From an uncultured Erysipelotrichaceae bacterium (GTDB lineage Bacteria > Bacillota_I > Bacilli_A > Erysipelotrichales > Erysipelotrichaceae): 9,499 nt of DNA. The notes below the pieces were generated by a model. It was not told the origin of the DNA, did no database searches, and worked only from the letters and a program-made list of their open reading frames with translations. The position numbers and the translations under genes are program-made. The stretch covers positions 1-9,499 of the forward strand of contig CAYWGS010000057.1 in NCBI GenBank assembly GCA_964457525.1, written 5' to 3'. Shown here in pieces: positions 2,663-5,600 of this stretch (positions are counted from its first letter, which is position 1; every line of letters starts with the position of its first letter).

Positions 2663-5600
2663 TGCCTTTACGCCTTTTACCGCAATGGTTTGTATACTTT
2701 CTAAACCATTTACTTGATACTTAACTTCATATTGTCCAACTTCATTGAAAGTAAATTGTGTTCCAATGAGTTGACTAGTAACATCCTCACCATTAAAGGA
2801 GACTTGTATGGAAACTTGACTGGATAAATCTCCAGAAATAGGATCAATATAAGAATAATAACTGGATAAACTCTTTGTTTCGCCTTTATTCACTAAAGCA
2901 TATTTCTTCGCACTTAACTCACTTCGTGTTTGATAAGTATATCGAGTTTGAGTGTTTAATGGGTAGTAATTTGTTGGAACTTCGGCACCACTTGGAATCC
3001 ACCCTGACATTGTTCCATCAAGATAGCGATATAAGTTTTGATTTAATCGATCATAACTTGTATCGGATGCTTTATTGCCTGAAATCCAACTTGACCATGC
3101 TCCAAACTTAATAAATTCATATTGTTCATAATAACCACGAGTGGATTCCATAACGCGATAAGCTGTATTGGCTCCCGCATAATAATTTCCATACTTGTAT
3201 CGTACGGATACACCACATCGTGTATGTGGATAGTAGGCATATTGATAATCGCCTGGATGTTGGGCATAAGTCCAATAACCACTTATGACGGAATACTTTT
3301 TCTTAATCCAATCATTACTAAAACCACCCCGTTGAATGTTTGCGGATACGTTGGTACAGGAGTCCCATTCCAAAGTCACATCAGTCCATGCAGTATAAAC
3401 AGTTGGAAGTTGTTTAACGTATTGATATGAACTGTCTGGAGGTGTGCTGGAACCAATTATAGCTTGTGATTTGGTGCGTTCCTTATAATAAGGATTGGAT
3501 TCAAGGATACGAACTGTACCTGTTGCTGGAGTCGTTCCTGGATTCACTTCAACTTTTTCGACCCATCCATTCGGAGAAATTAGATAATCTTTATAATTTT
3601 GAGTACTGACGAGTTGAACTGTACTGGACTGTGTCATCGTCGTTAATGACTCTGGTTGAGTTGTCCAAGTACTAAGTTGTTTATTATCACGATTATCTTG
3701 GATTTCAATTACACGGATGACTTCTAAGCCTGTAGTACCTAAGGTATAAATAATTTCAACTGTTCCCTCTTTGCTGGTATCAACAGTGGATACATTGGTT
3801 GTTATTAGATTCGTAATATTATTCCCTTTTGCATCAACCGCACTCACACCAGTCATGATATTAATCGAATCACCCATCGAGATAACCGTATCATTTGGAA
3901 CTGTCATCTTTGAACGTGATCTTACATAAATCTCATCTAAAGTAATATTCGATTCATTTGGATGTAACTCATCCGCTAAAAATTGGTAATCTGTATAAGA
4001 TCTAGTTTCAGAACGATATTCTTTCTTACTTTGAACGTTGATTGAACTGGTGTCTATAATTTTGTCTTCTTGATACTCACCATATTCACCACTTGATTCA
4101 AAGGTATATAATACATAACGATACTGGGTTTTCTTACAATAAGAACCTTGTGCATCGGTTGCTTTTTCACTTGCACTGCAATCTCCCCATAATCGATAAT
4201 CATAATCTTTATATCCATATAGGTTAACCGTGTTTCCATTTAACACTATTTCTCCTAATAACCCATCTTTCCATGCAAAACCAAAGAGGTTGGTATGTTG
4301 ATATCCACCTAAACCAGATTGCTCACGCTTAGTAGTAGTTCTAATATATCCAGGTTCGACGACTTTACTCGATTCTTTTGTGGTAGACATACTCGAACGA
4401 TATAAAAAACGTTCCTCAACCACAACATTATCACTGCCTGAAATTTGTGTAGTAGTCCAAGCACTCATACCTGTCGTTGAATAGAATTTACGTTTTAATA
4501 GGGATTCTTTATCAATGAGTTCGGTATCCGTATTTGAAGGATTGTATGTTGTTGAAACAACACCGTCAATCTTATAGACCTTTTGTGTTTCAACAATATT
4601 ATTTTCATGCTTCAAAATAGGTTCTTTTTGCCAATTCGTAAAGTTAGTTGGATATCCTCCAAATAAGTACTCTACATAATACAAATAGAACTTTTTACAA
4701 TAGGTTCCACCTGTATCCGTTCCTAAATCAGATGCAATACACCCTCCCCATATCGCGTATTCATAGTCTTTGTAACCATATAAATTTGCAGGTTTCGTTC
4801 CATCAATTGTTACTCGATTAACAAATCCATTTGTCCATGGATTGCCGTATCCTTGAGTATGTAACCAAGATTTTTGTACAGAGTTCAACTCACGTTCTTG
4901 GCTTAAGTATTGATAATTTAAATAGGCATTAGCGTTAACCCAGCGCTCTTCATATTCTTTTTCACGATATTCGGTATAAGTCTCAACATTTTTATCTGTT
5001 GCAACTCCACTTTGACTGGCCAATGTCCAATCAGACCAATTCGTATAATAGACTTGTGAATCATTTACATGCTCAGTTTTCTTTGTTTGATTTCCATTTG
5101 CATCATACTCGAATGTGGTAACTAATCCAGAATCCTCTGTCTTCTTAGTCAATTGATTCATAGAGTTGTATTCAAATCGCGTTAAAACCCCTTCAGCACT
5201 CACTTCCTGAAGCAGATTTCCAACACTATCAAAATTTCGAGTTACGATATTTCCATCAGGTAAGTGCTCTTGTATCACCTTATTTACAAATCGATCGTAT
5301 CGATATAAAGTAACTAGTTCTTCAGAATTGGTTGTGGAGCGAACTTTTCGTTCAAGTTCACCTTCGATGTTATATTGATATTTTTCATAACTACCATCAA
5401 TGTTTTCTATACGAATGAGTCGATGATTTAAATCATAATAAGAGGTTGATCCTTGAACTAAAAGAACATTACTTGCGTTATATTTATCCTCACGGACTTT
5501 ATTCCCAAAACTATCATAAGTGGTTAAAACATAATTTCCATATGAATCCACTTGTTTAGTTAATTGATTTAAATTGTCATACTCAAATCTTCGAGTATTA

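Follow-up and report, generated by a model that had tools for sequence, protein, structure and literature searches.

A stretch of 801 residues without YD signal is set, in register, into the YD-repeat array of a giant RHS protein; it is rare, evolves under purifying selection and contains an Ig-like domain. The stretch of DNA analyzed here (the window, 9,499 nucleotides) covers the greater part of an RHS polymorphic toxin of 4067 aa that an Erysipelotrichaceae-like, gut-type anaerobe exports by the Sec route, and the insertion is a real, rare and new variant of an arrangement known from other RHS shells. To our preferred reading, in which a single cocoon carries an external binding arm spliced into one of its turns and the insertion is a probable binding appendage, we give about an even chance.

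A secreted RHS toxin with a split repeat array

The window is one open minus-strand frame of 3164 codons (nt 9460→2). The ATG start at nt 9460, from which residues are numbered, follows an RBS-like aaGGGGa sequence, and the features recognized along the frame are collected in Table 1. A metagenome contig of 99% identity, L002 (ORF nt 10-12210), supplied the full-length protein; along the 3153 aa shared with the window, its product shows 71 substitutions and is free of indels. Both cysteines of the N-terminal region are kept at the matching positions of the orthologue in L001, and the region gave nothing significant when compared with PDB sequences; these 780 aa could equally carry a targeting function.

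Table 1. Features of the minus-strand frame in the window
Feature	Residues (aa)	Position (nt)	Strand	Basis or remark
Giant RHS polymorphic toxin ORF	1-3153	2..9460	-	Single open frame; runs off the window
Sec-type signal peptide, MKRIRKILLCLIVFAELMVVLQPVSA		9383..9460	-	By eye: basic n-region, hydrophobic core, VSA cleavage-like site
N-terminal region, ~780 aa		7031..9382	-	Cys pair C358/C381; Disaggr_repeat below threshold, E 0.005
DUF6531 domain	811-885	6806..7030	-	PF20148, E 1.7e-9, 38.3 bits vs cut-off 24.1
YD-repeat block 1	917-1467	5060..6712	-	Self-derived YD HMM; Pfam RHS_repeat; TIGR01643
Insertion, 801 aa	1468-2268	2657..5059	-	Occupies the β-turn of a single YD unit; without YD signal
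Unit 1	1468-1657	4490..5059	-	~190 aa; WSDW, NLYGYKDY; Cys pair C1574/C1588
Unit 2	1658-1847	3920..4489	-	Second copy; Cys pair C1761/C1775
Ig-like domain 1 (Ig1)	1848-1924	3689..3919	-	Big_3 / Bact_surface_Ig-like type
Region u3	1925-2183	2912..3688	-	Trp/Tyr-rich (W 3.5%, Y 11%); Cys pair C2035/C2082
Probable Ig-like domain 2 (Ig2)	2184-2268	2657..2911	-	Adjoins the shell
YD-repeat block 2	2269-3153 in window	2..2656	-	YD HMM; partial NF041261 RHS_core

Over the whole ORF the shell repeats were detected by RHS_repeat (PF05593; E 3e-97, 15 stretches) and TIGR01643 (E 5e-57), and a YD HMM trained on the repeats of this protein itself placed 36 matches in the two blocks, which by this model span aa 917-1465 and 2270-3153. 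The DUF6531 domain, found by Pfam at that one place only, probably represents the plug or constriction of the shell's N-terminal pole, because it lies just ahead of the YD array, where the plug domain of RhsA and TcB sits (PMC8765631, whose text does not use the name DUF6531). At the other end, block 2 gives a partial match to NF041261 RHS_core (184 bits; cut-off 2000) and extends in L002 to an RHS core at about aa 3560-3615. By eye, and outside the window, this core carries the motif ...NPFKYSDPSGH at about aa 3606-3615, followed by a tail of 452 aa; in a related protein, P0001, the core motif ...NPYKYSDPSGNF is likewise followed by a tail. The aspartyl-autoprotease DPxG-type core with a variable tail that marks RHS polymorphic toxins is thus present, as seen through L002 and P0001, and the full-length protein has one plug and one C-terminal core, with its B-like and C-like parts fused into one ORF.

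The C-terminal tail of about 450 aa comprises a hydrophobic Gly-rich segment and a weakly WHH/colicin-DNase-like end, with both matches below cut-off (WHH E 0.011, Colicin-DNase E 0.021), and it retrieved nothing significant from the PDB. Downstream of it, L002 contains a DUF4272 ORF alone (above cut-off, E 6e-12), which its position makes a candidate for the immunity gene. L001 and L003 are flanked by housekeeping or metabolic genes.

Boundaries, modules and conservation of the insertion

The preliminary description had reported about 802 residues free of YD repeats between two in-frame YD blocks, and this was confirmed with Pfam, NCBIfam and the self-derived HMM. The 802-aa stretch alone carries no RHS, YD or TIGR01643 signal in Pfam or NCBIfam, and the lone significant YD-HMM match between the blocks (aa 2235-2269) overlaps an Ig-like C-terminal strand motif. 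To map the boundaries, a grid of 540 in-silico deletions was scored with the YD HMM. The junction that joins residue 1467 to residue 2269 (TFEYDANGNQTKKTEHVND followed by VTEYTYNSM) reached 34.0 bits, level with the best natural YD repeats, which score 33-38 bits with the same HMM. Because excision restores a full-scoring YD repeat, the insertion must interrupt one array at a single β-turn, about 580 aa past the plug; the earlier view of one array split by non-YD material therefore stands, while its extent of nt 2663-5068 needed refinement at both ends. Placement of the insertion point on solved Rhs shells by sequence was dropped, since the alignments are ambiguous owing to the repetitive nature of the sequence.

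The composition of the stretch also sets it apart from the shell, with 2.4% Trp compared to 0.1-0.5% in the YD blocks and with 6 of the 9 Cys of the mature protein, arranged in three pairs that are kept in all orthologues. Together with the missing YD signal and an Ig domain of Big_3 type, these properties support the earlier proposal that the stretch is not a divergent YD sheet. An AF2 model of aa 1267-2466 from a two-row alignment (mean pLDDT 32) was too poor to tell whether the flanks share one sheet.

Five parts make up the insertion: unit 1, unit 2, Ig1, u3 and a probable Ig2. Units 1 and 2 align end to end over about 190 aa, with 36% identity between residues 1532-1630 and 1720-1816 (BLASTP, E 2e-20), and the alignment of six unit sequences (A4) has 30 invariant columns, both Cys among them. 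The AF2 model of unit 1 from a four-row alignment is all-β and of low confidence (pLDDT 55.8); a Foldseek search of the PDB with it gave no match (best E 0.66), a fold comparison made unreliable by the quality of the model. Within the insertion, region u3 varies most, with identity lowest at 1951-2050, and its own Cys pair is conserved in three orthologues. As a diverged third copy of the unit it is unproven (hhalign E 0.34 against units 1 and 2), so that of the "two or three" Cys-pair copies previously counted, two are supported. Searches with Pfam, profiles and structures assigned no ligand-binding family to units 1, 2 or u3.

The previous identification of Ig-like domains in the insertion holds for Ig1 at the level of sequence and finds weak evidence for the second domain. 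Ig1 falls below the Pfam thresholds (PF16403, 19.9 bits against 27; PF07523, 18.7 against 21.2; E 8e-4 and 2e-3 for the two sub-threshold matches) and matches the PDB Ig-like domain 2kpn with E 0.0016. In an exhaustive search, 81 proteins matched the Ig1 stretch only, with whole-protein E values down to 1e-30 because these proteins hold several Ig repeats, each of which matches Ig1; the best of them are LPXTG surface proteins composed of Big_3 / Bact_surface_Ig-like domains. Ig2 has no Pfam match. It is the sole part of the insertion modeled by AF2 with pLDDT 64-79, showing about eight β-strands, and its C-terminal strand motif weakly resembles that of Ig1 (hhalign E 0.016).

The same collinear architecture was found in three other independent assemblies (L001, L002 and L003/P0001), the L003 copy having a frameshift elsewhere in the gene. 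Identity of the insertion to the orthologues of L001 and P0001 is about 51%, equal to that of the flanks and nearly free of indels, and its dN/dS of 0.12 compares with 0.08-0.15 in the flanks. When the window is compared with L002, u3 and Ig2 hold 11 of the 13 non-synonymous differences in the insertion. Outside the Ig domain, the insertion matches one other protein or cluster only among 1.84 billion representatives; these orphan modules would therefore probably prove to have a new fold or, at the minimum, to make up a family of their own. Searches of PDB sequences, phages, plasmids and IMG/VR returned the Ig domain only, or nothing. Word-index homology searches with the insertion and with the six-sequence unit profile found nothing, nulls that carry little weight because giants such as P0001 were never returned, and a profile that included the flanks (A1) retrieved generic RHS proteins of at most 2082 aa only, matched through their YD flanks.

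Relation to known RHS shells

The closest precedent is SGS1 of mosquitoes, a 3364-aa Rhs/YD protein of bacterial origin solved by cryo-EM, in which four non-YD domains are inserted in the YD shell, lie on its outside and were interpreted as receptor domains; they include Ig-like β-sandwiches (CBM, lectin-CRD) and a disulfide-bearing "wedge" of novel fold (PMC9935623). Both are giant RHS proteins whose YD sequence is broken by inserted non-YD domains. However, SGS1 has four separate insertions of about 140-510 aa each, whereas here a single 801-aa cassette of five modules occupies one turn, and the protein described here, unlike SGS1, is bacterial and has a Sec signal, a cleavable C-terminal toxin and a neighboring candidate immunity gene. 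SGS1 chains were absent from the PDB sequence matches to the insertion at E up to 10.

Like TcB, the protein has a large non-YD domain that interrupts the RHS array of a cocoon of BC size. In TcB this domain is a propeller of FG-GAP type, which closes off the pole and serves as the docking site for TcA, in contrast to the present insertion, in which no FG-GAP or propeller signal appeared at E up to 10 in a scan that finds FG-GAP in P0151 with E 1e-40. Neighboring TcA and TcC genes, as expected of a TcB, were not found in the flanks of L001, L002 or L003. TcB-like propeller insertions occur in two other RHS matches (P0151 and P0191), and further RHS proteins among those retrieved likewise show arrays broken by non-YD gaps. 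The statement that the TcB propeller is the sole known exception to a continuous shell thus fails, given the four inserted domains of SGS1 and these gapped arrays.

WapA and the bacterial teneurin-like proteins (TLPs) are similar in their Sec signal, YD shell, polymorphic C-terminal toxin, adjacent immunity gene and adhesion domains (PMC13018210). Their adhesion or anchoring domains lie N-terminal to the shell, while the block described here interrupts the repeat array itself; an FN-plug and an NHL domain are further features of TLPs, whose shell falls far short of the roughly 2000 aa found here. At the sequence level no FN-plug or NHL domain was detected in our protein, to which Pfam assigns RHS_repeat and DUF6531 only. 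As Sec-dependent Gram-positive YD-shell toxins have been described (PMC13018210), the novelty earlier claimed for a Sec-secreted Gram-positive RHS protein was overstated. Finally, the Big_3 / Bact_surface_Ig-like repeats of LPXTG surface proteins are homologous to Ig1, but they form a tandem wall-anchored stalk in those adhesins, whereas Ig1 is a single copy among orphan modules in an RHS shell.

A possible binding arm and alternative roles

The approximately 2000 aa of YD repeats would most likely build one large cocoon of BC-toxin size, with the DUF6531 plug shutting one pole and the RHS core the other, and the C-terminal tail would be enclosed within it. The cargo capacity of published cocoons ranges from about 15 kDa (RhsA) to about 30 kDa (Tc) (PMC8765631), so that housing a tail of about 50 kDa plausibly takes the two YD blocks together; a folded insert of 90 kDa could not also find room inside. 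The inserted block would fold apart from the shell, in the order unit 1, unit 2, Ig, u3, Ig, and would probably jut from the outer face of the side wall, where it would act as an adhesin-like arm for a ligand on a target cell or surface. Unit 1 and Ig2 would form the base of this arm, and the variable u3 might determine its specificity. Each non-Ig module probably has one disulfide, although in a strict anaerobe these bonds may be formed inefficiently. We infer the single cocoon, the external location, the disulfides and the binding function; the binding-arm reading is supported by the precedent of inserted, shell-mounted receptor domains in SGS1 (PMC9935623), and the aromatic richness of the modules is only suggestive as a hint of ligand binding. 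A further, more tentative proposal is that units 1, 2 and u3 belong to a hitherto unseen family of β-modules, rich in Trp and Tyr and stapled by disulfides, that jointly build the receptor-binding arm, and that this arm, not the N-terminal region, picks the cells attacked by a Sec-secreted giant RHS toxin of gut anaerobes.

Other roles of an inserted block have to be weighed against the binding arm. It is unlikely that the insertion tethers the toxin to the producer's own cell wall or S-layer and so displays the shell for contact-dependent delivery: domains that bind the cell wall or S-layer are predicted in Sec-dependent YD-shell toxins of Gram-positive bacteria, and the domains homologous to Ig1 belong to wall-anchored proteins, but the described anchoring domains are N-terminal and not set into the shell (PMC13018210), the N-terminal 780 aa are the more usual place for anchoring, and no SLH, LysM, CWB, LPXTG or similar signal was found in the insertion. 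A gate or docking domain comparable to the TcB β-propeller, which would shut or regulate an opening in the cocoon or attach it to a partner translocator and so control toxin release instead of target recognition, is decidedly unlikely. In Tc toxins the domain homologous to the Rhs plug amounts to no more than a constriction, and sealing and gating fall to the inserted propeller (PMC8765631), the inserted β-propeller 2 of SGS1 lengthens the chamber (PMC9935623), and the shell here is BC-sized. Nevertheless, the scan that detects the propeller insertions of P0151 and P0191 with ease finds none in our insertion, a TcA partner is missing from the neighborhoods examined, the insertion does not adjoin the plug, and a modular make-up with Ig domains resembles an adhesin arm.

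The remaining alternatives concern the shell and the sequence itself. Blocks 1 and 2 might be two separate barrels, partial or complete, on a flexible multidomain tether, as block 2 with the core (about 1350 aa) has the length of a complete canonical or T6SS Rhs cocoon and block 1 matches PDB Rhs shells over partial stretches only. We consider this very unlikely, since excision restores a perfect repeat register, the protein has a single plug and a single core, a YD half-barrel of 550 aa is without precedent in the structures of PMC9935623 and PMC8765631, and a cargo of about 450 aa suits a larger single cocoon. That the stretch is an artefact, whether a chimera of the assembly, a mobile element, an intein or decayed sequence without function, is hardly credible: the extreme rarity of the family and the frameshift in L003 would fit it, but four independent assemblies share the architecture and no stop interrupts the frame. 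Descent from an intein or mobile element in particular was rejected, since junction signatures are lacking by eye, GC is similar to that of the flanks and dN/dS is low.

How Gram-positive Sec-secreted toxins of the RHS/WapA type find and enter their targets is poorly understood, and the conserved cassette, removable from the shell in register, offers a clean experimental handle. The arrangement extends the idea derived from TcB and SGS1, that of a YD shell as a scaffold which tolerates large insertions at hairpin turns, a tolerance relevant to the engineering of RHS or BC cocoons as delivery vehicles. If the arm does set the choice of target, it would provide the first handle on target recognition by Gram-positive RHS cocoons.

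Limits of the interruption in the YD array

A single ORF of 3164 codons on the minus strand fills the 9499-nt window, and its ATG is preceded by a ribosome-binding-like aaGGGGa. The encoded protein was matched by RHS_repeat of Pfam (E = 3e-97) and by TIGR01643 of NCBIfam (E = 5e-57), and the G+C content stays at 31-39% all along the window, with no shift at the insert. An antisense ORF of 102 aa with a TTG start (window 3122-3430, plus strand), most likely spurious, lies opposite the insert coding sequence.

We used a YD-repeat HMM, built from the window protein's own repeats and then iterated, whose 36 hits fall into aa 917-1465 (block 1) and aa 2270-3153 (block 2). 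The single borderline hit between the blocks (2235-2269) falls on an Ig-like C-terminal strand motif, and the 802-aa stretch scanned alone returned no RHS or YD match in Pfam (E up to 10) or NCBIfam (E up to 1), which bears out the preliminary description of a non-YD stretch of ~800 aa splitting the RHS array. The junctions were mapped with 540 in silico deletions in which both end-points were varied and each product was scored with the YD HMM. The best deletion, with 1467 as the last kept residue and a restart at 2269, yields TFEYDANGNQTKKTEHVND joined to VTEYTYNSM, where the HMM consensus is TYTYDALGQLVKKTDPNGLVTTTTYD, and this junction scores 34.0 bits versus 33-38 bits for the best natural repeats. 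The best excision thus scores like a natural repeat and therefore sets the limits of the insert, whose boundaries are now fixed, as judged from these scores, to a single residue. The insert interrupts one repeat unit at its 'DPNG' turn, and once it is excised the periodicity is unbroken again; this is the strongest evidence in our analysis for a single array made up of blocks 1 and 2.

Features of the window protein and of its insert
Feature	Residues (aa)	Window (nt)	Strand	Basis or remark
RHS toxin ORF	1-3153	ATG at 9460, off the window at 2	minus	
DUF6531	811-885		minus	Pfam, 38 bits, over cut-off
Insert (801 aa)	1468-2268	2657-5059	minus	in silico excision
Unit 1 (~190 aa)	1468-1657		minus	Cys pair C1574/C1588; end-to-end alignment with unit 2
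Unit 2 (~190 aa)	1658-1847		minus	Cys pair C1761/C1775; tandem copy of unit 1
Ig1	1848-1924		minus	Pfam Bact_surface_Ig-like and Big_3, sub-threshold
u3	1925-2183	2912-3688	minus	Trp/Tyr-rich; conserved Cys pair C2035/C2082
Ig2 (probable)	2184-2268	2657-2911	minus	AlphaFold, about eight strands

Modules of the insert and their relatives

Composition sets the insert apart, because it holds 6 of the 9 cysteines of the mature 4067-aa protein and its Trp content is 2.4%, against 0.1-0.5% in the YD blocks. Outside the insert, the N-terminal region carries the pair C358/C381 (window 8318-8389, aa 358-381), with both Cys at matching positions in the orthologue of an Erysipelotrichaceae MAG (L001), and C2700, the sole remaining cysteine, is not conserved.

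Two or three copies of a Cys-pair module had been proposed for the insert. Two stand, since the cores of units 1 and 2 share 36% identity (E = 2e-20); the relation of u3 to them is not significant (hhalign E = 0.34), and u3 is not counted as a third copy. Over their whole length, the six unit copies of three orthologues can be aligned, and 30 columns are invariant, among them W11, an NxYGYKDY motif and the Cys pair 14 residues apart. Of the Ig-like domains proposed alongside, Ig1 is supported beyond its sub-threshold Pfam matches: 81 proteins matched exactly this stretch in an exhaustive search of 1.84 billion representatives, the top ones being LPXTG-anchored proteins with tandem copies of Bact_surface_Ig-like/Big_3 domains, and PDB 2kpn was matched with E = 0.0016. 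Ig2, the sole insert part modelled with pLDDT 64-79, is probably a second Ig-like domain.

The unit profile found no match in a word-index protein search, in PDB sequences or in IMG/VR, and the whole insert none among phages, while among plasmids the Ig domain alone matched. No hit of the word-index search exceeded 2082 aa, and a full-insert relative (P0001) was not among its hits despite 51% identity; since nothing beyond about 2100 aa was ever returned, its nulls are weak for giant proteins, and the exhaustive single-sequence search is the meaningful test of relatives. At the level of sequence comparison, the non-Ig modules are orphans, without detectable relatives.

Orthologues and the full-length gene

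The same architecture was found in three further assemblies. A scan of GTDB genomes gave one relative, L001, whose ORF of 3407 codons runs off the contig end. The exhaustive phmmer search with the insert gave one protein spanning it entirely, P0001 (3114 aa, 51% identity, E = 1e-255), a singleton cluster from an ENA assembly. On its contig (L003:3392-15345, ENA ERZ21878130 contig_24) the gene is split into two called ORFs, one of 869 aa and P0001, which overlap by 1 nt; the break lies inside the DUF6531 domain and is either a pseudogene frameshift or a sequencing error. A metagenome scan gave a 13-kb JGI contig (L002) coding a protein 99% identical to the window protein, with 71 substitutions and no indels (nucleotide identity roughly 97-98% by difference count). 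The neighbours in L001 and L003 are housekeeping and anaerobic-metabolism genes (PFL-like enzyme and activase, transaldolase, Mur ligase, PhoH, YbeY, Era), with no TcA-like gene among them.

L002 carries the complete gene, of 4067 aa, in which YD repeats run on to about aa 3560, with the RHS core (up to ...NPFKYSDPSGH) and a tail after them. This C-terminal cargo (L002:10855-12210, aa 3616-4067), outside the window, is unusually long, ~452 aa. Around aa 3840-3895 it is hydrophobic and rich in Gly and Ala, and its end, ...DWVWHHIVEE..., matches WHH (E = 0.011) and Colicin-DNase (E = 0.021) only weakly, in both cases below cut-off. A few bases past the stop codon begins an ORF with DUF4272 (E = 6e-12; L002:12226-12948), whose position alone makes it a candidate immunity protein.

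The window protein and its three orthologues align collinearly, at about 50% identity in insert and flanks alike and with almost no indels. Compared with L002, the window sequence shows a dN/dS of 0.12 for the insert and of 0.08-0.15 elsewhere. The insert is thus real, translated and constrained, and the chance that it is an artefact is negligible.

Shell topology and possible function of the insert

AlphaFold modelled aa 1267-2466 with pLDDT 32 from a two-row alignment and unit 1 with pLDDT 55.8 from a four-row alignment, the latter as all-β with long hairpins, and Foldseek with the unit 1 model found no match in the PDB (best E = 0.66). Since these models are of low confidence, we infer one continuous cocoon of blocks 1 and 2, with the insert outside, from other observations: the restored repeat register and the single plug and single core in the whole protein. 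Two separate barrels with a tether between them seem improbable. The cargo tail of about 50 kDa, above the cargos of the smaller RhsA (~15 kDa) and Tc (~30 kDa) cocoons (PMC8765631), is in keeping with a shell whose YD repeats total ~2000 aa, and it is sterically implausible that a folded 90-kDa insert would be housed inside as well. The conserved Cys pairs and the adhesin-type Ig domain also point to an external insert, and all structurally characterised YD-shell insertions sit outside the wall (PMC9935623, PMC8765631).

As the most likely reading, held with roughly even confidence, we propose that the insert is an externally displayed arm binding a target-cell or surface ligand; such a binding appendage is a reasonable interpretation. 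Unit 1 and Ig2 would form the base of the arm on the shell, and u3 would be a candidate specificity determinant because it is the most variable part: identity between orthologues is lowest at aa 1951-2050 (32-38%), and u3 plus Ig2 hold 11 of the 13 non-synonymous insert differences from L002, numbers too small to test diversifying selection. WapA-type toxins are on record among Gram-positive YD-shell toxins, as are Sec/SPI-dependent polymorphic toxins that carry domains for adhesion or anchoring (PMC13018210); that the insert anchors its toxin to the producer surface is nonetheless unlikely. That the insert serves, like the TcB propeller, as a gate or for docking is slightly less probable, given that the propeller signal and a TcA gene are absent and the insert lies far from the plug.

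The preliminary description named the TcB propeller as the one known departure from a continuous YD shell, a view that is out of date. The mosquito protein SGS1, a 3364-aa Rhs/YD protein with a cryo-EM structure, has a β-propeller 2, a CBM, a lectin-CRD and a novel-fold wedge as inserted domains, read as receptor domains; the CBM and lectin-CRD are Ig-like β-sandwiches, and the wedge has two conserved disulfides (PMC9935623). Several of the 120 generic RHS proteins that we retrieved also show non-YD gaps within the array. P0151 and P0191, with FG-GAP propellers, look TcB-like. P0169, from Vallitalea okinawensis, has a gap of ~230 aa (aa 697-929) with dockerin-like motifs and a sub-threshold cohesin match (E = 0.006), perhaps a further case of a Firmicute RHS shell with an insertion that is not a propeller. 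P0088, P0089, P0090, P0092 and P0095 (~1925 aa) have in common a Trp-rich segment of ~200 aa without Pfam match (aa ~520-720), inside the YD array past DUF6531. From SGS1, the other YD-shell toxins and these gaps, a YD shell tolerating inserted, externally displayed domains is therefore an already known principle, and the novelty first claimed was overstated. What is new lies in how these traits combine: one turn carries one very large cassette of five modules and 801 aa, mostly of modules without detectable relatives, and the host is a single-chain, BC-sized RHS toxin with a Sec signal from an Erysipelotrichaceae-like lineage. It is a known arrangement in a new version, with orphan modules, in a very rare protein family.
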